From assembly GCA_021162365.1 (NCBI GenBank), contig JAGGYW010000020.1:9154-73153 (forward strand): 64,000 nt of DNA, written 5' to 3'. The notes beneath the pieces are model-generated. The model saw only the letters and a program-made list of their open reading frames with translations, made no database searches and was not told where the DNA came from. Made by a program: the position numbers and the translations under genes. This document shows, piece after piece, positions 12,252 through 62,897 of this stretch (positions are counted from its first letter, which is position 1; every line of letters starts with the position of its first letter). The DNA comes from Nanobdellota archaeon (GTDB taxonomy: Archaea > Nanobdellota > Nanobdellia > CSSed11-243R1).

Positions 12252-14225
12252 ATGAAAGACTCATTAACCTTCATAGAAATTATGGTTTTGATTAGGGAAT
12301 TGAAGGAATTAGTTGGGGCAAGAGTTGAGAAAATATATCAGCTAAGTAGAAATGAAGTTGTCTTTTATTTGTATAAAGGAGAGAAAAAGATATTGAAAAT
12401 TGATGTCCCAAAGGTTGTTTGCCTTACAGAGTATAAAAAGGAAAATCCTGAAACACCATCCCATTTTTCTATGTTTTTGAGGAAGCATCTTAACAATGCA
12501 ATTATAGTAGATGTGTTGCAGCCAGATAATGAAAGGATTATAGAAATTAAATTTAGAAAAGGGGAGAAGAATTATAGTTTATTTTGCGAGCTATTCAGTA
12601 AGGGGAACATTATTCTCTGTGATGATAATAAAAAAATATTGATTCCTTTGTTTGCCCAGTCATGGAGAGATAGGGATATTCGTCATGGTGAGACCTATGT
12701 TTTGCCCCCAAAGAGAGTGGAAGTAAATGATCTAGATTTTAGTAAATTTAGTCAACTTCTAATTGATTCTGGTAAGGATGTAGTTAGAAGTTTGGCAACA
12801 ACGCTTAGTGTTGGGGGGACATATGCAGAAGAACTTTGCTATATTTCAAATATTGATAAGCACGCACTACCGCAAGACCTCTCCCAAGAACAGCTTAGAA
12901 TTTTATTTGATAACTTCATCAAATTAATTGAAAGAGCAAAAATAGGAACAATAGAAGCAAACGTTATCTTTGAGATAAACTCTCCCGTAGATGTCCAACC
13001 CTTTTTGCTTGAGATTTATGCAGATAAGAAAAAAAGGATTTTTAATAGTTACAACGAAGCGCTTGATTTTTACTTTGCGAATTATGTCGCCACATCAACA
13101 ACTAAGCAATATTCAGATGCTGTTTTAAAGGAAATCGTTAAGCAAGAAGCAATCCTTAAACAACACGAGAATTACCTAAAAGAATTGCAAGAAAAGTCGG
13201 CGCTATTTAAAGAACAGGCAGATTTTATATACCAACACCTTGGGGAGATAAGTGACTTATTAAAAGTAATTCATGATGCAAAGGAGAAGGGATATTCTTG
13301 GGACGAAATAATTAATAAGATAGAGTGGAAGAAGAGAGAGGGAAATCGCGAGGCGATGTTAATAAAAGAGATACGTCCAACGGATGCAATTATCGTGCTT
13401 AGTAACGGCACGCAGATAGACATGCGCAAAAGCGCGACCGAGAATGGAAATGAGTTGTACGAGAAGTCAAAAAAGCTTGCATCTAAAATTGATGGTGTAA
13501 AGTCAACAATCTCTCTCGTGAAGGAAAAAATACAGCGTTTGAAAGAAAAAGAGGAAACTATAGAAGTTATTGCTCCGAAGAAGATTGAAAGAAGAGAAAG
13601 AGAATGGTACGAGAAATTTTATTGGTTCTTTACAAGTGGGGGTAAATTGGTGATTGCTGGCAAGGATGCCACACAGAATGAGATTCTAATCAAGAAATAT
13701 CTTGAGCAAAATGACATTGTGTTTCATGCGGATGTTTATGGCTCCCCGTTTGTAATAATGAAGGATGGTAAGAATAGCAATGAAGAAGACAAGAGAGAAG
13801 CAGCCATTTTCACCTTGTGTCACTCAAGGGCTTGGAAGAATAAAAGAGTTGAAAGTGTGTATTGGGTGCTTCCTGAGCAGGTTTCAAAGAAGGCACCAAG
13901 TGGGGAGTACATCGGAAGAGGGGCATTCATGATTTATGGCAGGAAGAATTACATTAAAGATGTTGAATTGAGGTTTGGCGTGGGCGTCCAGCTTGATCCA
14001 TTTAGGGTTGTGTCGGGTCCTGTTGAAAATGTCAGAAGAAGGGCAAAATATTACGCTGTTTTAATACCAGGGGATAAGAGCAAGGATGCAATTGCAAAAG
14101 AGGTTAAAACTTATTTACAAAATGTTGCAAGGGAAGAGCATAAACAAATGATTAATAGTATCTCTATAGAAGAAATAAAACAACATGTTTTAGATAGTTC
14201 TAATGTATTTGGTGTGGTAGAATGA
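12252..14225 (+). CDS. NFACT-family protein (Rqc2/NEMF/FbpA homolog; ribosome quality-control factor)
   Basis: N-terminal NFACT-N-like region, central coiled coil, and C-terminal NFACT-R/DUF814-like segment (FHADVYGSPFVIMKDGK). Start moved to ATG 12252 (MKDSL...) because the 12129 start overlaps polB. Confidence 0.65.
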   Translation: MKDSLTFIEIMVLIRELKELVGARVEKIYQLSRNEVVFYLYKGEKKILKIDVPKVVCLTEYKKENPETPSHFSMFLRKHLNNAIIVDVLQPDNERIIEIKFRKGEKNYSLFCELFSKGNIILCDDNKKILIPLFAQSWRDRDIRHGETYVLPPKRVEVNDLDFSKFSQLLIDSGKDVVRSLATTLSVGGTYAEELCYISNIDKHALPQDLSQEQLRILFDNFIKLIERAKIGTIEANVIFEINSPVDVQPFLLEIYADKKKRIFNSYNEALDFYFANYVATSTTKQYSDAVLKEIVKQEAILKQHENYLKELQEKSALFKEQADFIYQHLGEISDLLKVIHDAKEKGYSWDEIINKIEWKKREGNREAMLIKEIRPTDAIIVLSNGTQIDMRKSATENGNELYEKSKKLASKIDGVKSTISLVKEKIQRLKEKEETIEVIAPKKIERREREWYEKFYWFFTSGGKLVIAGKDATQNEILIKKYLEQNDIVFHADVYGSPFVIMKDGKNSNEEDKREAAIFTLCHSRAWKNKRVESVYWVLPEQVSKKAPSGEYIGRGAFMIYGRKNYIKDVELRFGVGVQLDPFRVVSGPVENVRRRAKYYAVLIPGDKSKDAIAKEVKTYLQNVAREEHKQMINSISIEEIKQHVLDSSNVFGVVE

Positions 14226-14620
14226 TGGAAATAACTTTGCCAACTTCGAAGAAGTATGAATTAATTGATATAACTGAAAAGGTTGCTAGGTTTGTTAAAG
14301 ATATTAAAGATGGCATTTGTTTAGTTTATACACCACATGCTACTGCAGGAATAATAATTAACGAAAATTGGGATGAAAGTGTTCAGGATGATTTTATTAA
14401 TTTGCTTAACAAGCTAATCCCAGAAGGAAAGTGGAAGCATGATAAAATTGATGGAAACGGTGCTGCTCACTTAAAGGCTTCAATTGTTGGTCCAAGCGAG
14501 ATGATTCCAGTTAAAGATGGAAAACTTCAGCTTGGAAGGTGGCAAAATATATTCTTCTGCGAGTTTGATGGCCCGCGCAAGGAGAGAAAAATAATTGTAA
14601 AGGTGGTAAAATGCATGTAG
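14222..14620 (+). CDS. yjbQ: YjbQ/UPF0047 family protein (secondary thiamine-phosphate synthase enzyme family)
   Basis: 132 aa with conserved stretches (VYTPHATAGIIINENWDE, DGNGAAHLKASIVGPS, LQLGRWQNIFFCEFDGPR) typical of YjbQ. Confidence 0.7.
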   Translation: MMEITLPTSKKYELIDITEKVARFVKDIKDGICLVYTPHATAGIIINENWDESVQDDFINLLNKLIPEGKWKHDKIDGNGAAHLKASIVGPSEMIPVKDGKLQLGRWQNIFFCEFDGPRKERKIIVKVVKCM

Positions 14621-16348: not shown

Positions 16349-16400
16349 CTTCTTTCTTTTAGTGCAGGTTTTCTTTCTTTTTAAGAAAGAAAAAGTGCTA
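16349..16400. terminator. T-rich tract plus about 11-bp hairpin (TTTTCTTTCTTT/AAGAAAGAAAAA) between convergent tyrS and the helicase gene; candidate bidirectional terminator; copy A of a repeated ~47-nt element
   Basis: Perfect inverted repeat flanked by oligo-T tracts, located between two gene 3' ends. A near-identical copy lies at 56111-56158. Confidence 0.45.
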
Positions 16401-50059: not shown

Positions 50060-50134
50060 ATAATGTGGTAAGCGAAACACATTTATAATGGTAACTTTTA
50101 GGTTTAACAATAAACATAGATAGGGGTGAAAATT

Positions 50135-51118
50135 TTGAGCGAAGAAAAACACAAGATAAAAATTTCTAAGCTGCAATTGTTCCAAGTTTTAACAGTTGTT
50201 TTAGCAATAGCACTACTTGCTAGCTTTGCAGTAAAGACAACAGGGTGCATGGTTGCAGATGTTGACACTGTTGGCAAGAACACAGTTGACTTTATTAACA
50301 ATAACTTGCTTCCACCCGGAGTATCAGCAACATACATTAATGGGAGGAGTTCGCATGGGATGTACAATTTGTCTGTTACAATAGGTAATCAAACAGGGAA
50401 CTTATTTGTTAGTGCAGATGGAAAACTTTTGTTCATTAACCCAATTGATATGTCACAAAGTATGAGTAATCCACAACAAGACCAACAACAACAAACGGAA
50501 ATTCCAAAGACAGATAAGCCAGTAGTTAAGTTGTTTGTGATGAGCTATTGTCCATTTGGAACACAAATGGAAAAAGGAATAATTCCAGTGATAAAAACAC
50601 TCGGCGACAAGATTGACTTCCAAGTGGAATTTGTGTACTATGCTATGCACGGAGAGAAAGAAATTAAGGAGAATATGTTACAAGTATGTATACAGAAGGA
50701 GTATAGAGACAAATATATTGACTACTTAGAGTGCTTCCTTGAAGCGGGAGATTCGCAGGGTTGTATAGAAAAGATTGGATTTAACAATGCTACATTAACT
50801 ACATGTATGGACAACTTAGATACAGAATATAACATAACTGCAATGTATAACGACCAGAGCACATGGTTGAGCGGCAGATATCCACTTTTCCCTGTAGACA
50901 AAGCAGACAACGATAAGTATAATGTTGGTGGGTCACCAACATTAGTAATCAATGATGTTGTTGTACAAAGTGGAAGAGATTCGGCAAGTTTGCTAAGTAC
51001 AATTTGTTCAGCATTCACAAATCCACCAGAAGAATGTAATACAGAGTTGTCTTCGACAACACCCTCTCCAGGATTTGGATATGAGGGAAGCGGAACAAAC
51101 AGTGGAAGTTGTGGCTAA
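50135..51118 (+). CDS. Secreted/membrane-anchored DsbA-like thioredoxin-fold protein with single-Cys CPFG motif and Q-rich linker
   Basis: N-terminal TM/signal. DsbA-like pattern KLFVMSYCPFG...VEFVYYAMHG...NVGGSPTLVIND, with CxxC replaced by CPFG. Start assigned to TTG 50135, 6 nt after a GGGGTGA Shine-Dalgarno (ORF track uses GTG 50126). Confidence 0.45.
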   Translation: MSEEKHKIKISKLQLFQVLTVVLAIALLASFAVKTTGCMVADVDTVGKNTVDFINNNLLPPGVSATYINGRSSHGMYNLSVTIGNQTGNLFVSADGKLLFINPIDMSQSMSNPQQDQQQQTEIPKTDKPVVKLFVMSYCPFGTQMEKGIIPVIKTLGDKIDFQVEFVYYAMHGEKEIKENMLQVCIQKEYRDKYIDYLECFLEAGDSQGCIEKIGFNNATLTTCMDNLDTEYNITAMYNDQSTWLSGRYPLFPVDKADNDKYNVGGSPTLVINDVVVQSGRDSASLLSTICSAFTNPPEECNTELSSTTPSPGFGYEGSGTNSGSCG

Positions 51119-51393
51119 AGAAGCTTTTCATAAATTTTTTTTATTATTTCTTTTGCTTTTTCTTCATCTTTAATTTCTTTGACTAGAACTCTACCATCCT
51201 TGAATATATTGATTGTGTATTTGTTTTTCGCAATTATCATGTCCTTTAGGGATAGTTTTATTTCGTATCCTTCCTTTTTGAGAATTTCCTTAGCTTTTGA
51301 CATATCTATCTTTACTAACTTCTTGACAACTCCTTGGAAGGCTGCGCCGGTTGTACAAGGTTTGAATATATAATAGTTACTCTTCATTTTCAA
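51115..51393 (-). CDS. Hypothetical small protein
   Basis: 92-aa K-rich ORF in an operon-like arrangement; no family recognised. Confidence 0.3.
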   Translation of the reverse strand: MKMKSNYYIFKPCTTGAAFQGVVKKLVKIDMSKAKEILKKEGYEIKLSLKDMIIAKNKYTINIFKDGRVLVKEIKDEEKAKEIIKKIYEKLL

Positions 51394-52104: not shown

Positions 52105-52878
52105 TTGAAATTAATAAATCACTATTTGGTTTCAAATGACATGGATTATATCATCTCAGAGCTTGCTGGTGCTATTGTTGGTGACGGACATATTGTTGAC
52201 AATAGAAAATATTCTTTGTATATCTATGGGAATGCGACGGAAGATTTTTGTTATTTGAGATATTTGTCGTCTCATTTTGAAAAGTTATTTGGCATATCTC
52301 CAAGGTTAGGTATAAGAGTATATAAAAATGGGCGTGCCGCGATATTACAAATCCACAATAAAGATGTCGTAAGATTTTTTACTAAAGTGGTTGGGATCCC
52401 CGCTGGAAACAAAATATACTCAGTGAGCATACCAAGTTTTGTAGATGAAAGTAATATCAAGTATTTTGTAAGGGGGTTATTCGACACGGATGGGTGTATA
52501 GTATTTACGAAGTCTAAAACGAATTCTCTATTTCCTACCTATCCGAGAATTGAAATAAAGACATCTAGTGGTAAGTTGAGTTCACAACTAATAGATGTGT
52601 TAAACAATATAGGGTTTAAAGTAAACTTACGAAGAGATGGAACTTCAAACATAATATACGTTAGTGGAAATCTCCAGGTTGATAAGTGGTTTGGGGAAAT
52701 TGGTTCGAGTAATTTAAAAAATCTAGTTAAGTTCCAATTTTGGAGGTGCTTTGGGTATCACTTGCCTGGATTAGACGTAGGATCTAGATTAAAAATATTA
52801 AAGCGGGCGGGGAGAGTCGAACTCCCTTCTACCGGTGACTGCCAATCATTGCTTAAACAGCTCATCTCACCGAGTTAG
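52105..52878 (+). CDS. Free-standing double-motif LAGLIDADG homing endonuclease
   Basis: Two LAGLIDADG motifs about 100 aa apart (ISELAGAIVGDGHI and FVRGLFDTDGCIV), as in single-chain enzymes like I-DmoI. The last ~25 codons run antisense across the tRNA gene and are probably read-through. Confidence 0.7.
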   Translation: MKLINHYLVSNDMDYIISELAGAIVGDGHIVDNRKYSLYIYGNATEDFCYLRYLSSHFEKLFGISPRLGIRVYKNGRAAILQIHNKDVVRFFTKVVGIPAGNKIYSVSIPSFVDESNIKYFVRGLFDTDGCIVFTKSKTNSLFPTYPRIEIKTSSGKLSSQLIDVLNNIGFKVNLRRDGTSNIIYVSGNLQVDKWFGEIGSSNLKNLVKFQFWRCFGYHLPGLDVGSRLKILKRAGRVELPSTGDCQSLLKQLISPS

Positions 52879-52936
52879 ACCGACTGCAGCTTCGACTCCA
52901 AGTGGAACGGTCGCATAGCCGGTCTGCCACGCCCGC
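52802..52936 (-). tRNA. tRNA gene with about 55-60 nt of inserted intron sequence; isotype unresolved (a UUCCACU loop after a GACCG stem could indicate anticodon CCA/Trp, unconfirmed)
   Basis: Minus-strand transcript begins GCGGGCG-U. It ends GGGAG-UUCGACU-CUCCC-CGCCCGC-U: canonical T-arm with TPsiCGA-like loop, plus a perfect 7-bp acceptor stem. About 103 nt lie between the acceptor 5' strand and the T-arm where about 41 are expected. CCA is not encoded. Confidence 0.6.
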
Positions 52937-52976
52937 ACAACTGAAACTAAATGGCTTTGTTTTAAATTCTTTTTCT

Positions 52977-53414
52977 TTAATCAAGAATTGTTTCTAATTG
53001 TGGTTCTTTTTGTGTTATATAAAATTTAAATCTCCCAATATTGTTTTTTACTATTTTTATAGACATATCTATTATTCTTTCACATTCCCCAGGAAAAGAT
53101 GGGATAATTTGCCTGCTGGCGTACCCTCCTGGCTTAACCTTTCTGTGGACTTCTTCATATACCTCGGGATGTTGATTTAAAAATGATTTGAATTTTTTCC
53201 TGTGTATTGGACTCCATTTTTTTTCAGAATCTTTGTAATCCTCAAATAGCCCCATTCCAATTATTGCTTGAACCAAATTATCATAAAATTCATTAACATT
53301 GTTAATCCCAAATTCCTTAGATTCAGTCACAGCACCATACTCGGTCATTACTTTTATGTATATATCTATAAATGGCGTGCATCTGGCTTTTACATGCTCA
53401 TAAACAGTAACCAA
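52977..53414 (-). CDS. Hypothetical protein
   Basis: 145-aa ORF with good coding bias; no family recognised. Confidence 0.35.
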   Translation of the reverse strand: MVTVYEHVKARCTPFIDIYIKVMTEYGAVTESKEFGINNVNEFYDNLVQAIIGMGLFEDYKDSEKKWSPIHRKKFKSFLNQHPEVYEEVHRKVKPGGYASRQIIPSFPGECERIIDMSIKIVKNNIGRFKFYITQKEPQLETILD

Positions 53415-54880: not shown

Positions 54881-55627
54881 TTAATCACCTCCAAAATTAA
54901 AAAGTTGGGTACTAAAATATCTTTCTGCACCATCTGGGAGAACTGTTAGCACAATCCCTTTTAGTTTCTTTGCTACAAAAACATTTGCGCCAGATGAGAC
55001 ACCAACTGCAATTCCTTCCTTTTTTGCTATTTCTCTTGCAGTTTTTATTGCATCTTTGCTGCTTACTTTTACTATTTTGTCAATCTCTATCTTATTAAGT
55101 AATGGTGTTTCTACGTCGTCGCCTATACCTTCTATTTTGTGATTTTTCTCTTTTGGTAGGACGCCAATTATTTTTATCTTAGGAAATTTTTCTTTCAACG
55201 CTTTTCCTATGCCAGAAAGTGTTCCACCAGTTCCAATCCCCGCAACGAAGTAGTCAATTCTGTAGAATACTTTAGCGATTTTCTCCCCCACTTTATAGTG
55301 TGCTATAAAGTTTGCTTCATTTTCAAATTGATTTAAGAATACTCCTTTTTTCTTCTTTGATAGTTTCTTTGCAATTTCTTTTGCTTCTTCCATATTTTTT
55401 AATAGGATTACTTTTGCCCCAAACAACTCAATTAGTTTTTCCCTTTCTTTGCTTGCCCCTTTTTGCATAATGATAGTTACCTTCTTGCCGAGTTTTGCTC
55501 CAATGGCAGCAACAGAAATTCCTGTATTCCCTGTACTTGCTTCAATAATATGTTCCTCTTTAACTCCTTTTAGCATTTCATACACGACTCTATCTTTTAT
55601 GCTTCCTGTCAGATTAAATCTCTCCAC
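54881..55627 (-). CDS. Cysteine synthase (CysK/CysM-like PLP enzyme), compact; non-ATG (GTG) start or N-terminally truncated
   Basis: PLP-lysine motif GSIKDR, asparagine loop TSGNTG-like (STGNTG), glycine loop GTGGT. The motif lysine sits at residue 11 from a GTG start. The in-frame upstream stretch (…LVTKSEVIELRKISKNLFASVERFNLTGSIKDR) still looks CysK-like but has no ATG before a stop 22 codons upstream. Confidence 0.6.
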   Translation of the reverse strand: MERFNLTGSIKDRVVYEMLKGVKEEHIIEASTGNTGISVAAIGAKLGKKVTIIMQKGASKEREKLIELFGAKVILLKNMEEAKEIAKKLSKKKKGVFLNQFENEANFIAHYKVGEKIAKVFYRIDYFVAGIGTGGTLSGIGKALKEKFPKIKIIGVLPKEKNHKIEGIGDDVETPLLNKIEIDKIVKVSSKDAIKTAREIAKKEGIAVGVSSGANVFVAKKLKGIVLTVLPDGAERYFSTQLFNFGGD

Positions 55628-55808: not shown

Positions 55809-56110
55809 TTAAGGTTCAGGTGGCCAGCCAAAGAGGGAATTTAGCTTGCGACGCACGACTTTATTTTTGAGCGATATAATTACTGCAATAATCACAATTG
55901 CCAACAATACCCACGGCCAATATACGCTTACTTCGTATGGTAATTCCATGTGGAATTGTAACACTTAAACAATTAAATAAATTTCTTTTTCTTTTGCAAG
56001 CAAAAGCGCCCGGAAAAGTTTCTCTTTGGTGCAGCTTCTTTTCCGCCAGCGCTTTTCTAAAGGGCTGTAAGAAGGTGCTAAGAAAAGCTGTATCAAAAGA
56101 ACCTAAGAGA

Positions 56111-56158
56111 TTTCTTTCTTTAGTGCAGGTTTCTTTCTTTTTAAGAAAGAAAAGTGCG
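56111..56158. repeat. Copy B of the ~47-nt T-tract/hairpin element (TTCTTTCTTTAGTGCAGGTTTCTTTCTTTTTAAGAAAGAAAAGTGC); terminator-like
   Basis: Aligns with 16349-16400 with about 3 single-nt indels. Contains an ~11-bp perfect hairpin. Confidence 0.5.
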
Positions 56159-56295
56159 TGGGGAACTCATTAGCTACCCTGTATCTCATCGGCTTTCGCC
56201 TCGTTGGGTGTTACACTTAATCATCGTTCCCTAATTAAATAAACAACGAATCTTTTATAAGTTTATTACATCTAATAGCTTTTGGGGTGAATTTT

Positions 56296-56421
56296 ATGGT
56301 TTGTAGCGGGTTGCTTGAATATCTGCGAAAAGAGTATGGACTTGTTCCTGTAATCCTTATGCCTCCCTACACTCCTTTAATAGGAGAGCCAGAGGATTAC
56401 AAGCGCAAGGAGAGACCATGA
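56296..56421 (+). CDS. Small upstream ORF (41 aa) translationally coupled to the next gene
   Basis: ATG 6 nt downstream of a GGGGTGA Shine-Dalgarno. Its TGA stop overlaps the ATG of the 56418 gene (ccATGAgg). Its 20-nt leader is identical to that of the 58201 gene. Confidence 0.4.
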   Translation: MVCSGLLEYLRKEYGLVPVILMPPYTPLIGEPEDYKRKERP

Positions 56422-56702
56422 GGAAAAAGGAATTGTGGTATTTTTACTTTGGATTGGCTTCTATTTTTATAGTCATTGGTTTTTTCTGGCTTTTTAGTTA
56501 CTATGCGTCTTTCCCCATTTACATCAAGTCAGCTCTCAACGAAAGCATCCACTCAAATTCTACTACACTTGTTGTTGAAAAACCACCTTTTCCTTGGGTT
56601 GCGCTTTTCCTTGTCATATTTGGCACAGCAACTTTTTTAATCTCTAAATATTTCTATGATAAAGAGGGATATCATGTTAAAAGAACCAGAAAGCATGGAT
56701 GA
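56418..56702 (+). CDS. Small 2-TM membrane protein, hypothetical
   Basis: 94 aa with two hydrophobic helices; SD-like AGGAGAGA upstream. Confidence 0.45.
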   Translation: MRKKELWYFYFGLASIFIVIGFFWLFSYYASFPIYIKSALNESIHSNSTTLVVEKPPFPWVALFLVIFGTATFLISKYFYDKEGYHVKRTRKHG

Positions 56703-56934
56703 ATGTTCCTTTTTTACAAGAAGGATTTTAGATGATGGCACAAAGTTAGTTGCATGGGTGCCTAAGGACACAAATATTGTTAATGTGAAGTATACTTGTG
56801 GCGAATGTGGCAAAAGTGGCGAAATAACACAAGAGTTTAAGAAGCCGATAACTTTTGTCTGTCAGTTTTGTGGTCACAAAATTGTTGTTGAACCATTAAA
56901 CAAGAGAAGGGGCAGAAGAAAGAAAAAAGCTTAG
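56674..56934 (+). CDS. Small zinc-ribbon protein with basic C-terminal tail
   Basis: CGECGK...CQFCGH four-Cys ribbon; C-terminus RRGRRKKKA. Start chosen at ATG 56674 (preceded by GAGGGA SD) rather than 56656. Confidence 0.45.
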   Translation: MLKEPESMDECSFFTRRILDDGTKLVAWVPKDTNIVNVKYTCGECGKSGEITQEFKKPITFVCQFCGHKIVVEPLNKRRGRRKKKA

Positions 56935-57311
56935 ATTCCTTCATATTTGAACATTAGCGTTTCTCCATTTGATACAATGTAATTCTCAATTGATTTATTT
57001 ATCTCTTGGAGTGCCCCATTTTTTATTGAGTATGCATGCCACTCACTTATATCTGTGTTACAATAATCAGCAATGCAATATATACTCCCATTTTGTATGT
57101 CTACAGAGTATGCAAAAGAAGATAGTGCCATCAGGGCTGTTGTGTTTTCTCCAACACCAATTATATTTTTGTATATTTTACCATTGCCCATATCCACTAC
57201 TATTGTTACATCTTGACTTGATGATTTTTTTCCGCTAAACACGACAAGCGTTGAAGACAAGAATATTGCCACTATCACCAATGACACAATTGCTTTCTTG
57301 CTTAGTTTCAT
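56931..57311 (-). CDS. Signal-anchored small secreted beta-rich protein, hypothetical
   Basis: N-terminal TM/signal (AIVSLVIVAIFLSSTLVVF), about 100-aa extracytoplasmic domain with conserved Cys pair. Confidence 0.4.
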   Translation of the reverse strand: MKLSKKAIVSLVIVAIFLSSTLVVFSGKKSSSQDVTIVVDMGNGKIYKNIIGVGENTTALMALSSFAYSVDIQNGSIYCIADYCNTDISEWHAYSIKNGALQEINKSIENYIVSNGETLMFKYEGI

Positions 57312-57398
57312 ACGCCATTAAATTTGATGTCCATTTAAAAAGTTTTCAAATAGCAACATATATAAATTACTATTCTGTAGTAGATACAGGGGTGCACA

Positions 57399-58124
57399 AT
57401 GGGCAAGAAAAAAGAAAATCCATTAGAACCAGAAATAAAATCCTTAGAGGAGGGATTGTTTAATCCTACGGACGATGATGCATTTCCCCCACTTATTGAT
57501 GCAATAGAAAATATAGGAGATGTGAAGAACTATTTGAAATGGATGCAACAGGAATATAATAGAAAGATTATGTCTTTGGAGGAAGAGGTAAGGGAACATG
57601 GAGATGAATTAATTTCTGTTTTAACAGAAGTTAGTTCCCTAAGAGAAAGTGTTGAAACTCTCGGGATGGTAGTTAAGGACGAACTCCCAAAATATATGGA
57701 AAGAGTTGATTCGAACGCTAGAGAAATTTCTAAGGTGTATAAAGAGGTAGAAGAGATTGCTAAAACCCTTACTGCGAGATTAGAAGCTATTGAAGCAAGC
57801 ATCTCTGTTATTTCTAGTTCAAAAAGTGAGACTCCAACGTATAAACCAGAGAAGGAGTACGAGGGGAGGATTATTAGTTATTTAAAAAATGGTAGAGAAA
57901 CAAGAGGAGTTATACCAGGAGAGCCTTATTCTGTCATTGTTAAGTTTGGAGATAACTCTTACAGTGGTCCCGTCGAGGTTGATTTTGAATTGGAAGGTAA
58001 AAGTGAACTTGTTTTAAAAACAAGGTCAGAAGCAGAGAATGGCAGAGCTTTTTGTGAGGATGTGTTTGTGCTACCTAAAGGGTATAAGCTTAAAAGTGTA
58101 AAAATCATTGTCACTAACGAGTAG
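57399..58124 (+). CDS. Hypothetical coiled-coil protein with C-terminal beta domain
   Basis: 241 aa. Acidic/coiled-coil N-terminal two-thirds; compact C-terminal domain. Confidence 0.45.
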   Translation: MGKKKENPLEPEIKSLEEGLFNPTDDDAFPPLIDAIENIGDVKNYLKWMQQEYNRKIMSLEEEVREHGDELISVLTEVSSLRESVETLGMVVKDELPKYMERVDSNAREISKVYKEVEEIAKTLTARLEAIEASISVISSSKSETPTYKPEKEYEGRIISYLKNGRETRGVIPGEPYSVIVKFGDNSYSGPVEVDFELEGKSELVLKTRSEAENGRAFCEDVFVLPKGYKLKSVKIIVTNE

Positions 58125-58200
58125 TTATATACGAAAGATTTATAAAGGGCAAATTCATAACAAAACATAAGAAAATTATAACTCAAAAGGGGTGAATTTT

Positions 58201-58971
58201 ATGGTTTGGCCTTGGAGTAGGAAAAAAGAAGAGGAGGATGATGGTATGGGAAAGTTAGTTTATGAATTGGATGGACCGTTGTCTAACAAATTTATTAAAG
58301 AAGTTTTAGCAGCATCAGAAGAGAAGGCAAGAGAAGTAATTGCAGATATTGTTGGTGAAAATGCAAGTGACGACACAATTAATGATTATGTAAACTTAGC
58401 TGTGGCTGCAGTAGGTGGAATGCTAAAGAGATTTGGAGAGGAATATAGGAGAGGACAAGATACTGAGTTAGAAGTAATCATAGGTCCTGCGGATGAACCT
58501 GGTCTCGCACCAATAGGAACAGATATACATGTTCTTCCACAGAACTACAATAAACCAATCAAAGAAAACAACTTAGGTGTTGGTTCACTTGAGACAATGG
58601 TATATAAGGACAACAATAGACAAGTGGTAGTTCAACCAATTCCATTTGGTGTAGCAGTAAGTGTTGAAAATAAATTTGGAGACAACCTATATTTAGTAGG
58701 TGTGGATGTTGAGAGGAAGATAGTTTATGATAAGGATGTAAAAGATAACTTAATAGTGAAAAAGAAGGAAGTACCAACAGCATTGGAAGATGCAAACATA
58801 ATTGATACAACTCCAGCAGATACAGCATTGATTAGAATGGCATACAACAGGAAGGAAGATTGGGCTGAGGAAAGAGCAATTACAGCTTACACAAAGAGAA
58901 GTAACAATAAGCAACCAGTGCCTAACCCACATAGAAGTAATCCACCAGCTAATCCACCAGCGACACCATAG
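58201..58971 (+). CDS. Hypothetical protein with acidic N-terminus and Pro-rich C-terminal tail
   Basis: 256 aa. ATG 58201 follows GGGGTGA SD (ORF track starts at in-SD GTG 58192). C-terminus PNPHRSNPPANPPATP. No family recognised. Confidence 0.5.
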   Translation: MVWPWSRKKEEEDDGMGKLVYELDGPLSNKFIKEVLAASEEKAREVIADIVGENASDDTINDYVNLAVAAVGGMLKRFGEEYRRGQDTELEVIIGPADEPGLAPIGTDIHVLPQNYNKPIKENNLGVGSLETMVYKDNNRQVVVQPIPFGVAVSVENKFGDNLYLVGVDVERKIVYDKDVKDNLIVKKKEVPTALEDANIIDTTPADTALIRMAYNRKEDWAEERAITAYTKRSNNKQPVPNPHRSNPPANPPATP

Positions 58972-59055
58972 TTTTTTCTTTTTTCTTTGTAGTTTTGTTA
59001 TTTATTAATAATAAACTATTTAATTAATAAATTATTACCAAATATTGGTGATGTA

Positions 59056-60420
59056 ATGGCAGATACCAATCCACTAGCTTCAGTTTTTGGCGTAATTTGG
59101 GGTGCATGGCTCGCTTTAATGACTGCCTTGGACCCTACGACAGTTAATAATCCTATTGCATGTACTTTAGCATCTTTAGTTTTTGGAGTTATATTCTATA
59201 TAATTTTAACAATCGCTATTAGTAAAATTACAGAAGGTCACAACTTAGAAGAAAGTTTAATTAAGTGGGTGAATTTCCTTGTAACTGTAGGGTTCACATT
59301 GTTAATGATTCAGCAGGGATATGTCTACTTGATCGCATCAATGATGTCTTTGATGGTTTTCATGATAGTGTTAATCTTTGGATTGCTTTTCTTCTATTAC
59401 ATATATGCTCATGGCAAGAAGTTTGCCAAGGGTGCATATGAAACATCGAAGAGTGCGAGGTTCCTTAAAGATGCTTTAAGAGAGAGAAGAGAAGAGAAAT
59501 TAAGAAGAAAGGAAGCAATTCTTGAAGAAAATAAAACACTGCAGGAGATGGGAGAACAACTCAGGCTTGTGGACAGGGAATGTAAATACTATCAGGGATT
59601 GGTAGAGTATTTAAAGAATGTTTTTAGAACACTCAAATGGAAAAATCTTTCTTCAGCGTCTAGAAAGGTGATATCAAACTATCTCGCTCAGGTCAAATCT
59701 GCATTGGTTAAATATCAATCTTTGGAATTACACGAGTTAGTTGATATAAACAAGAGAGAGGATATTTTAATATCTCTTCTGAGAAAGGAGGAAAAAGCCG
59801 CAAGAAAACAAATAGCTGATATCGAAAAGATACTAAGTACAATGGATGGGCGCAAAAAGCAAACAAAAGAGTATAAAAAGAAACTGGCCACCCTAAAAGA
59901 AGAACTTAATAAGGAGATAAAGAAATCCGAAAAGTTCATATCTTCACGGATCACCACACTGAAGAATGAGATCACTTCTTTAATGAATGAGAAAAGAAAA
60001 TTGTCTGAGAAGTTGATAAAATTGTTGGATTATAAGTTCGTGGTTGTTAATAAAACAATTCTCAAGACCGCAGAAGAATTGTATGAAAAATGTGTCGAGT
60101 TGTATAAAAAAATAGAAGAAGAGCTTGCTGATGAACGTAGGAGAGCATATACATCTCATGAGTTAGAGAAGATAATAGATGAGATAAATATCCTGCTCAA
60201 CGAAATTCAGAATGCAATGCCTAAAAAACCACCAGTGGGTGGGGAAAATGAGGTTAATTTGATTTTTAATGGTACTAAGGCAGAATGTCCGTTGTGTAAG
60301 AAAGTGATAACAAACAATTATGATAAAAGAAAGCCAAAGACACATAAATGTAGCAAGACAGGTAAAACATATACTATTGATTGGGAGAAGCATATATTGA
60401 AGGTAAAAGGTGGTAAATAA
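59056..60420 (+). CDS. Membrane protein with 4 N-terminal TM helices, about 280-aa coiled coil and C-terminal zinc ribbon
   Basis: Hydrophobic N-terminal about 120 aa, long heptad-rich K/E segment, C-terminal CPLCKKVITNNYDKRKPKTHKCSKTG. Confidence 0.55.
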   Translation: MADTNPLASVFGVIWGAWLALMTALDPTTVNNPIACTLASLVFGVIFYIILTIAISKITEGHNLEESLIKWVNFLVTVGFTLLMIQQGYVYLIASMMSLMVFMIVLIFGLLFFYYIYAHGKKFAKGAYETSKSARFLKDALRERREEKLRRKEAILEENKTLQEMGEQLRLVDRECKYYQGLVEYLKNVFRTLKWKNLSSASRKVISNYLAQVKSALVKYQSLELHELVDINKREDILISLLRKEEKAARKQIADIEKILSTMDGRKKQTKEYKKKLATLKEELNKEIKKSEKFISSRITTLKNEITSLMNEKRKLSEKLIKLLDYKFVVVNKTILKTAEELYEKCVELYKKIEEELADERRRAYTSHELEKIIDEINILLNEIQNAMPKKPPVGGENEVNLIFNGTKAECPLCKKVITNNYDKRKPKTHKCSKTGKTYTIDWEKHILKVKGGK

Positions 60421-60941
60421 TGGCAGAATCAATAATTGTTGGTGGATTGGAAACATTAAGACATATGGGATTTTTTGATTTTTTCCTACCATTCTTGCTA
60501 TTCTTTGCTATAATCTATGCGGCTTTAGATAAAACACAGGTTTTTGGCGCTGATAAGAAAGACACAAACGCCATAATTGCTCTTGTAATTGCTCTTATTG
60601 CTTCAACAACAAGTTGGGTATTAAAGGGCGTAGCAGGTTTCCTTCCATGGGTGGGTTTCATAGCTCTTATTGTTGTCGCCTTTTTAATGCTTGCAGCGTT
60701 AGTATATGGTGGCGAGGTAAATAAATTGTATGAAAGCCCATGGGTAAAAGGGCTCGCTCTTTTATTTGTCGTGATTGCCCTTGGAGCAGGATTATACTAT
60801 GGATTGGGACTTAACGAAACACTTGGTGGAATTGGTAGTGGGATATCAGATGAAGATGTTGCAGTGATTCTTGCTTTGATAATTGGAATTGTTGCTTTTG
60901 CAGTTATAGTCAAAAGTCCAGGTAGCTCAAAAAGTAAGTAG
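60420..60941 (+). CDS. Polytopic membrane protein, paralog 1 of a tandem triplet
   Basis: 173 aa, about 5 TM. N-terminus GFFDFFLPFLLFFAIIYAAL shared with paralog 3; C-terminus ISDEDVAVILALIIGIVAFAVIV shared with paralog 2. Confidence 0.6.
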   Translation: MAESIIVGGLETLRHMGFFDFFLPFLLFFAIIYAALDKTQVFGADKKDTNAIIALVIALIASTTSWVLKGVAGFLPWVGFIALIVVAFLMLAALVYGGEVNKLYESPWVKGLALLFVVIALGAGLYYGLGLNETLGGIGSGISDEDVAVILALIIGIVAFAVIVKSPGSSKSK

Positions 60942-60951
60942 GTGATGTAAG

Positions 60952-61545
60952 ATGGTTACTCTTTCAGGTGTTGTACAAAATCTTTGGGGTATGGCAGTCG
61001 GATTAGTTCCAGCAGGAGTGCAGCCAATCCACTTTTGGCTGACGTTTATGATAACCCTTGCAATAGTATTTTTATTGCTGCAATTTATAAAAATCTTTGA
61101 GGATCATCGCGGCTCCGCTTTCATAGTCGCGGTAGTCATATCCTACTTTGTGGCAAGTAGCGCTTTTGCAACAATTATTATAGCAAAGTTATTCCCAAAT
61201 GTTGGTATCGCGTTAATGGCAATCTTAGGGTTAATGATGGTAATTGCTTTACTATCTCCAAGTTCAATAAGTGGGGGTACAAATTGGTCAAGACTGATTG
61301 TTTTAATTGCGCTTGTATTTGTAATATGGGCGACATATTCGTCTGTCGCGCCGGAGCTGCAAGCAGCAGGGGTTATATCTTCCACAGGTGGCGGTGGAGT
61401 TTCAATTTCGGATCAGGATGCAGCTACAATTGTTGCAGCTTTGATAGTAATTGGTGTAGTATATATGATTGTTTCTCCGAAAAAAGATAATAGAAAATCC
61501 TTCCTAAGGGACTTCTTTAACGCCCTTAAGGGGAAGGAATTGTAG
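60952..61545 (+). CDS. Polytopic membrane protein, paralog 2 of a tandem triplet
   Basis: 197 aa, about 5 TM; G-rich loop GGGGVSISDQDAATIVAALIVIGVVYMIV similar to paralog 1. Confidence 0.6.
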   Translation: MVTLSGVVQNLWGMAVGLVPAGVQPIHFWLTFMITLAIVFLLLQFIKIFEDHRGSAFIVAVVISYFVASSAFATIIIAKLFPNVGIALMAILGLMMVIALLSPSSISGGTNWSRLIVLIALVFVIWATYSSVAPELQAAGVISSTGGGGVSISDQDAATIVAALIVIGVVYMIVSPKKDNRKSFLRDFFNALKGKEL

Positions 61546-61554
61546 GTGATATAA

Positions 61555-62148
61555 ATGGCAACTTTACTTCAATCAATAGGATTTTTCAAGGACCTCTTTG
61601 ACTTTTTCCTACCATTCCTATTAGTGTTTTCAGTAGTTTATGCAATTTTAGTTAAAACAAAGTTCCTTACAGAAGATGCAAATGTTAATGCATTAGTTGC
61701 TCTTGCAATCTCCTTGGTTGTTGTGTTATCAAGGGCAGGGGAGTTTTTGATGCAACTGACACCATTTATGGCGACATTTTTCATAATACTTTTCTTTGTA
61801 TTAATGTTGTTTTTATTCTTCGGGGTAGATTTAAGCAAAGCTATGCAGAGTAAGGCTGTAATTGTTTTGATAATTGTCATTAGCGCAATATTTGTGTTTT
61901 ATGTGTTAGGTAACTTTTTAAGCCCAGAAGCGCAAATGGCTACAGCAGCCACTTCTAATGTTAGTGGTAATGTTACTGTAACAGCGTCACCTGACGTCTT
62001 TGTTGCAAGTGAGAAGACATGTGACTTTTCAGCTATTTCTGGAGGTCATGCAGTAGTTTGCATAATAAGCAATCCTAAATTCCTAGGAGCAATAACAGTA
62101 CTAGGTCTATTAGCAATAGTGACTTTCTTTGTAGTGTATAAACCCTAG
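61555..62148 (+). CDS. Polytopic membrane protein, paralog 3 of a tandem triplet
   Basis: 197 aa. N-terminus LFDFFLPFLLVFSVVYAIL nearly identical to paralog 1. Extracellular T/S/V-rich segment with sequons. Confidence 0.6.
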   Translation: MATLLQSIGFFKDLFDFFLPFLLVFSVVYAILVKTKFLTEDANVNALVALAISLVVVLSRAGEFLMQLTPFMATFFIILFFVLMLFLFFGVDLSKAMQSKAVIVLIIVISAIFVFYVLGNFLSPEAQMATAATSNVSGNVTVTASPDVFVASEKTCDFSAISGGHAVVCIISNPKFLGAITVLGLLAIVTFFVVYKP

Positions 62149-62897
62149 TGTTTTTTCATTTTTTCTACAATTTTTCTAAGTTCTTTTATTTCCTCCGCTA
62201 GTCCTGGGATAAGTTTGCCCATGACTTTTTCTAGTGCTTCCATCTCTGTATTTACATTGTTAATTGTTTCTTTATATTCCTCAGTTTTTGAGACAAGGAC
62301 TTTTGAGAAATCATCAACTCTTTTGTTGAGTTCTGTAACCTTAGCACTTAAGTTGGACACTTTTTCGTCTACTCTTGCTTTCCATGCGTCTAACTTTGAT
62401 ATCTTTTGTTCTACTTCCTTCCACTTTTCTTCGATTATATCTTCAATTATTCTTTGTAGTTCATCTACTAACCCTTCTGTTCCTGCTGGCACGCTTGGTG
62501 CGGGTTGGGAAGGAATCTGTGGAGTTGGTTTTGGCATTTCAGGAGCTGGAGGTACACCTGGCATTGGTGGAAGTTCGGGTGATTCAGGAACTGGAGGCAT
62601 TTCAGGAAGTGGTGGCAATTCTGGAGCTTGAGGTGCTCCTGGCTGTGGAGGTAACTCTGGTGTTGGAGGCATTGGTGGTAATTCTGGGGATGCAACCGCG
62701 CTTTTTATTTCCGCCTGTGAAAGGGCATCCCTAATCTGTTGCAAGCTATATCCTTGTGCCCTTAGCTGATTTGCAATTTGTGCATTTGACAATCCTTGTG
62801 CTTTCATGTTTAGAACTTGTGAAACAGGAATTGTATTGTTTTCAGGTAAAACAGGTATTTCCTCTTCTTTCTTTTTTCCGAACAACTTAAAAGCCAA
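62145..62897 (-). CDS. Hypothetical protein: MxFKLFGKKK N-terminus, HTH-like segment, Pro-rich PELPPMP repeats, C-terminal coiled coil
   Basis: N-terminus MAFKLFGKKKEEE. GLSNAQIANQLRAQGYSLQQIRDAL resembles a sigma-70 region-4/LuxR-type HTH. About 65-aa proline repeat region, then about 110-aa coiled coil. Confidence 0.5.
   Translation of the reverse strand: MAFKLFGKKKEEEIPVLPENNTIPVSQVLNMKAQGLSNAQIANQLRAQGYSLQQIRDALSQAEIKSAVASPELPPMPPTPELPPQPGAPQAPELPPLPEMPPVPESPELPPMPGVPPAPEMPKPTPQIPSQPAPSVPAGTEGLVDELQRIIEDIIEEKWKEVEQKISKLDAWKARVDEKVSNLSAKVTELNKRVDDFSKVLVSKTEEYKETINNVNTEMEALEKVMGKLIPGLAEEIKELRKIVEKMKKH
62489..62690 (-). repeat. Imperfect tandem repeats encoding P-E-L-P-P-M/L-P units within the 62145-62897 CDS
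   Basis: Repeated GGAGG/TGG-rich 18-21-nt DNA units on the plus strand encode a poly-Pro linker. Not CRISPR: no spacers, coding, irregular. Confidence 0.5.

Follow-up and report, generated by a model that had tools for sequence, protein, structure and literature searches.

The DNA analysed here, a 64-kb stretch of a metagenome-assembled genome of the Nanoarchaeota, a DPANN lineage (the window), encodes a cluster of uncharacterised membrane and coiled-coil proteins that adjoins a gene for a type IV pilus-type ATPase (PF00437). Two genes of this cluster have an identical 20-nt sequence at their starts. The sequence GGGGTGAATTTTATGGTTTG occurs exactly twice in the 64 kb, at 56284–56303 (copy 1) and 58189–58208 (copy 2), both on the plus strand, as direct repeats 1905 nt apart, and no third copy was found on either strand of the whole window at up to three mismatches. 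It is made up of a Shine-Dalgarno (SD) motif, GGGGTGA, a 5-nt A/T spacer, ATG and GTTTG; its non-SD bases are AAUUUUAUGGUUUG. Both sites lie where the initial annotation placed them. Its spacing and shared codons also hold: the ATG follows GGGGTGA after 5 nt in both copies, the reported 6 nt running to the A of the ATG, and ATG GTT is identical, together with the first two bases of codon 3 (TGT, Cys, or TGG, Trp). What is shared extends from the ribosome-binding site to codon 3, with promoters and flanks that differ between the copies and peptides that bear no resemblance past Met-Val. Compared in register, the 120-nt flanks are 24% identical, which is the random level, and the match is sharply bounded. 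An extended duplication was ruled out, local alignment and the in-register comparison of 120 nt of flank revealing no similarity outside the 20 nt. An assembly artefact was likewise rejected, as both copies are found on one independent JGI contig (L001) and the sequence is identical in other JGI and ENA assemblies.

Copy 1 (SD at 56284–56290, spacer ATTTT, ATG at 56296, GTTTG) opens a gene for a small protein of 41 amino acids (MVCSGLLEYLRKEYGLVP..., 56296–56421, plus strand), the first cistron of a unit that continues with genes for a two-TM protein and a zinc-ribbon protein. The two-TM gene (94 aa, 56418–56702, plus strand) has AAGGAG upstream of its start, and the TGA of the small open reading frame (ORF) overlaps its ATG at 56418 as ATGA, exactly as first described; the overlap is kept in the related contig L011. 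Homologues of the two-TM protein, 57–82% identical, occupy syntenic positions in Nanoarchaeota contigs. The zinc-ribbon gene (86 aa, 56674–56934, plus strand), assigned from Zn_ribbon matches below cutoff, overlaps the two-TM gene by 29 nt and lies downstream of it in all relatives.

Upstream, a TATA box, TTTTATAAG, at 56253–56261 lies midway between the 5' end of a small RNA gene (about 56232) and the first G of copy 1 (56284), and is predicted to act as a divergent promoter. Its centre is 26.5 nt upstream of that G, and the arrangement of the TATA box between the small RNA and the downstream genes is the same in L011 and L012. Copy 1 is thereby predicted to constitute the whole 12-nt 5' untranslated region (UTR) of the small-ORF mRNA plus its first 8 coding bases. 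In archaea the centre of the TATA box lies about 27 nt ahead of the transcription start, and in Thermococcus the SD motif is GGDGRD and the median 5' UTR 11–12 nt long (PMC5316973). With these published transcriptome data the locus agrees in its short UTR, in its TATA distance and in an SD of the GGDGRD type.

The small RNA, of about 73 nt (56160–56232, minus strand), is an unannotated C/D box sRNA that is divergent from the small-ORF promoter and forms no part of the repeat. On the minus strand it reads GGGAAC-G-AUGAUUA-(13 nt)-ACGA-GGCGAAAGCC-G-AUGAGAU-(12 nt)-AUGA-GUUCCC. The boxes follow the order C, D', C', D and depart at one or two positions from the consensus, which is RUGAUGA for C and CUGA for D with guides of about 10–12 nt (PMC7994747). 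In relatives the C box is the canonical AUGAUGA and D' is AUGA. Guides of C/D box sRNAs are complementary to rRNA or tRNA, with methylation at the fifth base upstream of D or D'. Those of the present sRNA, AGUGUAACACCCA and ACAGGGUAGCUA, hardly vary among the relatives, as might be expected if their targets are conserved. In an alignment of six sequences, read by eye, the tandem GA/GA pairs are invariant, the C6-D1 pair is U-A in the window, L011 and L007 and G-C in L012 and L010, and the C'5-D'2 pair is G-C in the window, L011 and L007, A-U in L012 and L010, with U-U in L014; in L007 the terminal stem has a G-U pair in place of A-U. Covariation within these six sequences supports a predicted K-turn and K-loop geometry. 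Rfam returned no family at gathering thresholds and only noise at E values up to 10 around 55900–56450, and ARAGORN detected no tRNA in the window.

The small ORF had been described as a uORF, with conservation of its peptide proposed as a check. That check gave a mixed answer, the peptide being conserved in L011 (57% identity, E = 3e-12) and L010 (63% over 30 aa, E = 4e-9), as judged by tblastn against the syntenic loci, and absent from three other relatives (L007/L008/L009, L012/L013 and L014/L015). A word-indexed protein search found no homologues, an exhaustive phmmer search only two long repetitive proteins that we judged to be false positives, and Pfam gave no hit; on the identical contigs L001, L004 and L005 the ORF is missing from the JGI and ENA gene calls. 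Over its first 19 codons, changes at the first, second and third codon positions number 5/2/9 between the window and L010 and 6/2/11 between L011 and L010, a third-position bias that indicates purifying selection, and the C-terminal half is not conserved. In L010 the small ORF stands apart from the two-TM gene, with an 18-nt gap and no overlap. Where it is missing, the two-TM ATG follows the centre of a TATA box by about 26 nt, and the two-TM mRNA of these relatives appears, by prediction, to be leaderless. With its selected N terminus and its absence from three relatives, the ORF behaves more like a small protein gene than like a regulatory leader ORF; it looks like an accessory small protein gene heading an operon. 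It may nevertheless encode a conserved regulatory nascent peptide, although the evidence favours a small protein.

In these orthologues the SD and the peptide are conserved but the exact 20-mer is not. The equivalent of copy 1 is GGGTGGATTTTATGGTTTGTAG in L011, where the SD region differs from copy 1 by one indel and one substitution, and GGGGTGGTTATAAATGGTGTGC in L010, where the spacer has another length and sequence and codons 2 and 3, GTG TGC, still specify Val-Cys. Apart from the SD and the peptide, the RNA sequence would seem to be without constraint.

Copy 2 has the same SD, spacer, ATG (58201) and GTTTG and opens, as the initial annotation had it, a 256-aa ORF (58201–58971, plus strand), directly followed by an oligo-T tract (58972–58990). 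The 256-aa protein has no Pfam match and no relatives in viral contigs. The one homologue found (L006, 41% identity) differs in its N terminus and its start region, which has an SD-like GTGGT, and the region around the gene varies in content from 0 to 4 genes among relatives. Upstream lies a gene for a 241-aa coiled-coil protein (57399–58124, plus strand) with its own GGGGTG SD at 57389–57394, about 26 nt downstream of the centre of a TATA box; its orthologue in L012/L013, at 38% identity, has GGGGTacaaATG. The TATA-like box nearest to copy 2 is centred 46 nt, not 26 nt, before it, and no oligo-T tract is present between the stop at 58124 and copy 2. The 241-aa gene is likely to be the first cistron of a unit that also carries the 256-aa gene, and we infer that copy 2 lies inside a longer leader or an intercistronic region after the 241-aa gene.

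Start regions of this type are common in the genome, where GGTGA or GGTGGT precedes the start codon by 3–6 nt in about half of the genes. An SD-like motif is present in 31 of the 66 larger genes of the window. GGTGA ending 2–8 nt before the chosen start codon was observed 16 times against 0.29 expected, and GGGGTG before the chosen start codon 7 times against 0.07, both comparisons being partly circular because the choice of start favoured an SD. The usual distance from GGTGA to the start is 4–5 nt, and three of the four GGGGTGA sites in the window lie exactly 5 nt before a start codon. Against an expected spacing of about 3–9 nt, both copies of the repeat and the TTG of a GILT-like gene have 5 nt. 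The SD is also kept, within an otherwise drifting UTR, before orthologues of the small ORF (L011, L010), of the GILT-like gene (L007, L010, L014) and of the 241-aa gene (L012). Spacing, enrichment and conservation together bear out the earlier view that this is a genuine SD at a functional distance. The general archaeal anti-SD, ...UCACCUCC-3', would pair with GGGGUGA, one of the pairs being G-U; Rfam detected no rRNA gene in the window.

The GILT-like gene provides the third, degenerate version of the motif that had been reported ahead of a DsbA-like gene, and GGGGTGAAAATTTTGAGC is indeed present at 50123–50140. This GILT/DsbA-like thiol reductase gene likely starts at the in-frame TTG at 50135, with the same geometry of SD, 5 nt and start (GGGGTGA, AAATT and TTG, 50123–50137, plus strand). 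GGGGTG(A) or GGGGGT followed by 5–6 nt and TTG is conserved before its orthologues in L007, L010 and L014. A comparable case of identity comes from L007, in which two adjacent genes share an 18-nt start region, TAGGTGATAATTTATGGC, with random flanks; this shared region is absent from the orthologues in the window, L010 and L014. Because neighbours in L007 show such an identity, the sequence space of start regions in this lineage is evidently narrow, and because the GGTGA/GGTGGT start context is so common, 10 of the 20 bases of the 20-mer are generic. The initial annotation had allowed that its motif might turn out to be frequent simply as a generic SD and start context. This holds in part: the SD and its start context are of the generic kind, but the complete 20-mer is not a frequent sequence. 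A scan for its 18-nt core, GGTGAATTTTATGGTTTG, gave single matches only, 31 from genome_contigs and 41 from metagenome_contigs, all to unrelated taxa and about as many as chance would produce (the source genome being absent from these sets), with none from viral_contigs.

How improbable the identity is depends on the null model. The given 20-mer was present twice in none of 100 dinucleotide shuffles, and exact direct repeats reached maximum lengths of 15–19 nt across 30 windows simulated with a Markov-1 model, from which we estimate p of about 0.01–0.02 for any 20-nt repeat in such a window. In the 2145 other pairs, drawn from the 66 larger genes, in-register identity through the start codon runs to 12 nt at most, and the decay of run length extrapolates to about 1e-3 to 5e-3 at 20 nt. 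Under a position-specific model for start regions that belong to the same SD spacing class, the value is 3e-7 for one pair and 4e-6 for the 15 same-class pairs. The overall chance of a 20-nt identity is roughly 1e-5 to 5e-3 per window. The statement that such identity is not expected by chance in 64 kb is fair for one window, where it is rarer than chance, but over thousands of windows it comes within reach of chance. A non-random process, copying or selection, may have contributed.

Our preferred reading, to which we give a probability of about 65%, is that these are two ordinary SD-type translation initiation regions with no demonstrated regulatory meaning; for the origin of their identity we favour coincidence, start regions being confined to a narrow consensus. 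The 3' end of 16S rRNA would pair with GGGGUGA, the spacer consists of five A/U bases, and a codon starting with G (Val) comes after AUG. The transcript of copy 1 would start at its first G and encode the small protein, the translationally coupled two-TM protein and the zinc-ribbon protein, and copy 2 would be the ribosome-binding site of the 256-aa gene in a longer leader or in a bicistronic 241-aa/256-aa transcript. A possible, distinctly less probable account of the same identity is that short-tract gene conversion or a replication template switch, acting between already similar start regions 1.9 kb apart, transferred a copy of the small-ORF start region, the older of the two, to the 5' end of the 256-aa gene. 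Both sites would remain plain ribosome-binding sites, and the identity would reflect common descent rather than shared regulation. In favour of this account, the match is perfect and sharply bounded between random flanks, and 20 nt is far above both the 12-nt maximum of other gene pairs and a null that takes start regions into account. Copy 1 also looks ancestral, ATTTTATGGTTTG being common to it and L011, while the start region and N terminus at copy 2 are not shared with the sole 256-aa homologue and the gene sits where content varies by 0–4 genes; the 18-nt identity of neighbours in L007 could be a second local homogenisation. Set against this, there is no direct evidence of a conversion event, and no closer relative with the 256-aa gene was found that would display the preconversion state. 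The patch would also have needed exact register, SD on SD and ATG on ATG, and the narrow consensus accounts for part of the match without copying.

The initial annotation went further, proposing a duplicated regulatory cassette, possibly the target of an sRNA or riboregulator, that ties both genes into one regulon. We consider it quite improbable that the small-ORF operon and the 256-aa gene share an operator through which a trans-acting small RNA or an RNA-binding protein controls the translation of both. The exact identity does span both ribosome-binding sites, and both genes belong to a conserved uncharacterised cluster beside the PF00437 ATPase gene. The window nevertheless holds only two copies and no sequence complementary to the 20-mer at up to three mismatches, and the site is unconserved at the nucleotide level in L011, in L010 and before the 256-aa homologue. 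The transcript contexts differ (TATA at 26.5 nt against 46 nt). Nor were the small ORF and the 256-aa gene found together in any relative examined: L010 carries the small ORF alone, neither gene is present in L007 or L014, and L012 lacks the small ORF, the only 256-aa homologue (L006) coming from the same sample as L012. The adjacent C/D box sRNA does not stand out as a regulator: the duplexes of its two strands with both start regions have unexceptional energies, ranking around the best tenth among all 66 start regions, and its guides are complementary to the 20-mer only through GGGUG. The proposed regulon is therefore not upheld, the sequence being unconserved, the contexts different, a complement absent from the window and the genes not co-occurring in the relatives examined. 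Highly improbable, and already largely refuted by synteny, is the notion that the repeats mark an inserted element, as its ends or its target-site duplication, or serve in a programmed deletion of the 1.9 kb between them. In its favour are the presence of direct 20-nt repeats at a distance of 1905 nt and the variable gene content just downstream; yet the two-TM, zinc-ribbon and 126-aa genes between the repeats are syntenic in every relative, even those without the repeats, no integrase, transposase or mobility domain is encoded between them, viral contigs contain neither relatives of the 256-aa protein nor copies of the motif, and both repeats sit exactly in register on gene starts, unlike insertion scars.

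On the preferred reading of two ordinary initiation regions, the finding itself matters little, amounting to two standard SD start regions in an uncultured Nanoarchaeota genome. It serves as a warning that, where start regions follow a narrow consensus, gene starts can come to carry exact short repeats. Its by-products improve the annotation of the locus: a conserved gene for a protein of 41–50 aa, passed over by the gene calls on identical contigs; a divergent promoter, predicted to give a 12-nt UTR; and a C/D box sRNA, so far unannotated, that is conserved in several lineages of Nanoarchaeota. We think it unlikely that the 20-mer is a lineage-specific operator, for an sRNA or an RNA-binding protein, or the trace of a recurrent short-patch conversion in DPANN archaea that homogenises neighbouring start regions, with L007 as a second example. 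Were the identity of neighbouring start regions systematic, it would suggest that short-patch recombination shapes translation signals in reduced archaeal genomes.

Comparison with known systems places each of these features. The sRNA resembles archaeal C/D box sRNAs (PMC7994747) in its four boxes, guides of 13 and 12 nt, terminal stem, K-turn, K-loop-like motif and length of about 73 nt. It differs from them in its C box (AUGAUUA in the window), in D' (ACGA) and D (AUGA or CAGA), and in a C'/D' loop formed by a 3-bp stem capped by a GNRA tetraloop. The 41-codon ORF before the two-TM gene, with its ATGA overlap and upstream AAGGAG, is like coupled overlapping cistrons or leader peptides; unlike regulatory uORFs, it does not accompany the two-TM gene across relatives, and the N-terminal 19 residues of its peptide are under selection. 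As in sRNA regulons, the shared sequence covers the SD and start codon, where many sRNAs act, but here the window has no complementary RNA, there are two sites only, the site is unconserved and the would-be targets do not co-occur. The closest likeness is to archaeal SD sites on short 5' UTRs, with a purine-rich GGTGA-type motif 4–6 nt before the start that is conserved in orthologues, a predicted 12-nt UTR starting at a purine about 26–27 nt downstream of the TATA centre, and SD-led and leaderless genes side by side. Nothing fundamental separates the two start regions from such sites, and the sole oddity is that an identical 20 nt stands on two unrelated genes 1.9 kb apart.

The 20-mer GGGGTGAATTTTATGGTTTG is present twice on the plus strand, at 56284-56303 (copy 1) and 58189-58208 (copy 2), as the initial annotation had reported, and no further match with up to three mismatches occurs on either strand of the window. 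In both copies, the ATG lies 5 nt past GGGGTGA. Copy 1 opens a 41-codon ORF (56296-56421; hereafter the small ORF) whose TGA overlaps the ATG of the gene for a 94-aa two-TM protein (ATGA at 56418), and copy 2 forms the start of a 256-aa ORF (58201-58971). A related sequence, GGGGTGAAAATTTTGAGC at 50123, lies upstream of a GILT/DsbA-like gene, in which an in-frame TTG at 50135 has the same geometry of Shine-Dalgarno (SD) sequence, 5 nt, and start codon. Identity ends abruptly on both sides: in register, the flanks match at 24%, and the top-scoring local alignment of the two regions consists of the 20-mer and nothing else. An assembly artefact is ruled out as the source of the repeat because independently assembled JGI and ENA contigs that are nearly identical to the window contain the same sequence, one of them (L001) with both copies.

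The first 7 nt of the 20-mer are a generic SD. Within the window, 16 GGTGA motifs end 2-8 nt upstream of a chosen start codon where 0.29 would be expected, and for GGGGTG the count is 7 where 0.07 would be expected, an enrichment that is partly circular in that start-codon choice leaned towards SD presence. An SD-like motif is found in 31 of the 66 larger genes, and SD variants are retained in relatives upstream of orthologues of the small ORF and of the GILT-like and 241-aa genes. GGGGTGA occurs four times in the window, three of them exactly 5 nt upstream of a start. The spacer of the 20-mer consists of A and T only, as in most start regions of the window, and the most frequent start context there has a G directly after the ATG. 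Both copies most likely work as ordinary SD-type translation initiation regions. In archaea, the SD pairs with the 3' end of 16S rRNA (anti-SD ...UCACC...), and from this general knowledge both copies would be expected to pair in the same way. The A/U spacer would keep the initiation site unstructured; when copy 1 is folded with its predicted native 5' end, SD and AUG stay largely unpaired in minimum-free-energy structures.

How unusual the 20-nt identity is was assessed with three null models, based on composition only, on empirical start regions, and on position-specific frequencies. The longest exact repeats in Markov-1 simulated windows were 15-19 nt, giving an estimate of p ~0.01-0.02 for a 20-nt repeat anywhere. 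The 66 larger genes form 2145 pairs, in which identical runs that pass in register through the start codon reached at most 12 nt; run counts drop ~2.2-fold per added base, which extrapolates to ~1e-3 to 5e-3 at 20 nt. The position-specific model, applied within the same SD-spacing class, gave 3e-7 per pair and 4e-6 over the window's 15 same-class pairs. The repeat is thus rarer than chance expectation for a single window but not so rare that chance is excluded when many windows are scanned. A comparable case is provided by L007, a contig of a relative, where at 13633-13659 and 14237-14263 two adjacent genes for 197-aa membrane proteins share the exact 18-nt start region TAGGTGATAATTTATGGC between random flanks, whereas the orthologous pairs in three other lineages (the window, L010, and L014) do not. 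It shows that the tail of start-region identity is heavier than the null models suggest.

We lean towards coincidence within a narrow start-region consensus as the origin of the 20-nt identity. The position-specific figures sit more easily with a short-patch copy, in which the older start region of the small ORF was copied onto the 256-aa gene, and the only homologue of the 256-aa protein (41% identity) has a different N terminus and a different start region, aaGTGGTtattATGaatgta. We consider this reading less probable than coincidence but a serious alternative. That the 20-mers are the repeat ends of an inserted element would account for two exact direct copies, and is scarcely credible: the features that define a mobile-element boundary were looked for and not found, and the 18-nt core has no match in viral contigs.

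A shared operator for both genes would explain identity that extends beyond the SD, and is improbable on the evidence of the relatives. The small-ORF leader reads GGGTGGATTTTATGGTTTGTAG in L011, the closest relative (sample SRR26701687; two-TM protein 82% identical), and GGGGTGGTTATAAATGGTGTGC in L010; relative to copy 1, both keep the SD and the peptide Met-Val-Cys and differ in the spacer and at synonymous positions, which argues for selection on the SD and the protein rather than on a 20-nt RNA element. Nor do the two genes travel together. L010 has the small ORF and no relative of the 256-aa protein, L007 and L014 have neither, and L012 lacks the small ORF; the sole 256-aa homologue, on contig L006, was recovered in the sample that also yielded L012, and the two may belong to one genome. 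In genome and metagenome collections that do not include the source genome, the 18-nt core had only single matches, all in unrelated organisms and about as many as chance would produce. No sequence complementary to the 20-mer with up to three mismatches was found within the 64-kb window, and a conserved sRNA nearby formed no exceptional duplex with either start region.

The transcript contexts of the copies also differ. Archaeal TATA boxes are centred ~27 nt upstream of the transcription start, and in Thermococcus the median 5' UTR is 12 nt and the SD is GGDGRD (PMC5316973). A TATA box is centred 26.5 nt upstream of the first G of copy 1, so that copy 1 is predicted to contain the entire 12-nt UTR of a primary transcript. 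The corresponding distance is ~26 nt for the GGGGTG of the 241-aa gene and 46 nt for copy 2, which is predicted to lie either within a leader of greater length or between the cistrons of a 241-aa/256-aa transcript. Transcription would accordingly begin at about 57389 for the 241-aa gene and read through into the 256-aa gene, and/or begin near 58169. Downstream of the 241-aa gene there is no oligo-T tract; a long one follows the 256-aa gene. The initial annotation had read the repeat as a duplicated cassette, possibly an sRNA or riboregulator target, tying both genes into one regulon. Its SD and its coupled small ORF stand; the regulon falls, drawing no support from conservation, the second gene, transcript context, a partner RNA, copy number, or co-occurrence.

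The small ORF behaves as a protein-coding gene. Its product is conserved in L011 (57% identity) and L010 (63% over 30 residues), and substitutions over its first 19 codons fall mostly in third positions (5/2/9 by codon position for window-L010 and 6/2/11 for L011-L010), the other frames being closed; conservation does not extend to the C-terminal half, which varies in length as well as in sequence. The ATGA overlap with the two-TM gene is retained in L011, and in L010 the small ORF stops 18 nt short of that gene. Where it is absent (L007, L012, and L014), a TATA box lies ~26 nt upstream of the two-TM ATG, predicting a leaderless mRNA. JGI and ENA gene calls on three identical contigs (L001, L004, and L005) skip the small ORF, and no homologues were detectable in large protein libraries. 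On our reading, the small ORF is an accessory gene for a small protein, found at the head of the operon in some lineages and translationally coupled to the gene that follows. A regulatory leader ORF is not favoured; a conserved regulatory nascent peptide is possible.

Upstream, on the minus strand, lies an unannotated, highly conserved RNA of ~73 nt (56160-56232), a putative C/D box sRNA recognized by its boxes, guides, stem, and covariation; neither Rfam nor ARAGORN detected it. It is also present in L007 (about 9892-9964), L010, L011, L012, and L014, with 86% mean column identity over six lineages, whereas the two-TM proteins are only 57-82% identical to that of the window. A terminal stem (GGGAAC/GUUCCC) encloses a C box (AUGAUUA in the window, AUGAUGA in L012, L010, and L014), a 13-nt guide, D' (ACGA/AUGA), a GGC-GNRA-GCC mini-hairpin, C' (AUGAGAU), the 12-nt guide ACAGGGUAGCUA, and D (AUGA/CAGA). 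The guides are nearly invariant between lineages, and two K-turn pairs covary (C6-D1 as U-A or G-C; C'5-D'2 as G-C, A-U, or U-U). The sRNA 5' end and the first G of copy 1 (56284, the predicted mRNA start) flank the TATA box at 56253-56261 at equal distances, an arrangement that suggests a single divergent promoter for sRNA and mRNA. L012 is similar, its one TATA box being roughly as far from the sRNA end as from the leaderless two-TM ATG; in L007 and in L014, the interval contains two TATA-like boxes. The longest exact repeat of the window is a 24-nt T-rich palindrome, TTTCTTTCTTTTTAAGAAAGAAAA, one copy of which (16370-16393) lies between convergent genes and the other (56130-56153) just beyond the sRNA 3' end; it resembles a bidirectional terminator hairpin.

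The two-TM protein is 100% identical to one from a 'Nanoarchaeota archaeon' MAG, and contigs encoding its homologues (57-82% identity) are syntenic with the window. The shared order runs CysS, conserved non-coding element, two-TM, zinc-ribbon, and a 126-aa protein on the opposite strand; then 0-4 variable genes, a ~450-aa protein, and three membrane proteins; and last two coiled-coil proteins on the opposite strand and a type IV pilus-type ATPase (PF00437). In comparison with L007, L010, L012, and L014, the 241-aa and 256-aa genes (57399-58971) fall in the variable part; their C-terminal regions show faint mutual similarity (KFGDN.Y motif, E ~0.4). The three tandem membrane-protein genes (60420-62148), the first and third of which share 66 nt at 76% identity encoding FFDFFLPFLL, stay beside the ATPase in relatives and thus probably belong to a DPANN surface-filament or secretion locus. 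A minus-strand gene (62145-62897) encodes a 250-aa protein with a helix-turn-helix-like segment near its N terminus and a coiled coil near its C terminus; inside it, short tandem repeats (62530-62700) at spacings that are multiples of 9 nt encode a proline-rich repeat of PELPP type. A cysteine synthase-like PALP gene (54881-55627, minus) begins at Pfam profile position 28, its GTG start directly abutting cysS; it may have lost part of its N terminus or have a wrongly called start. The gene is missing from L007 and L010 and encodes 270 aa in L014. Two ORFs, one for a free-standing LAGLIDADG endonuclease (257 aa, PF14528) and one of 145 aa, occupy 52105-53414, with the GNAT acetyltransferase gene on one side and the CysS gene on the other; L007 has no called gene in this interval, which suggests a mobile insertion. 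A 92-aa ORF (51118-51393, minus) aligns with only half a repeat of the TBP domain (PF00352), at a score that passes the gathering cutoff, and may encode a single-repeat TBP-like protein.

The elements described here are all of known kind. The defining features of an sRNA regulon were looked for and are absent from the two start regions, and the element at 56160-56232 is built like an archaeal C/D box sRNA (PMC7994747). The closest matches are ATGA-coupled operon cistrons, for the small ORF and the two-TM gene, and archaeal SD sites on short UTRs, whose testable features of position, enrichment, and motif conservation are all seen here.
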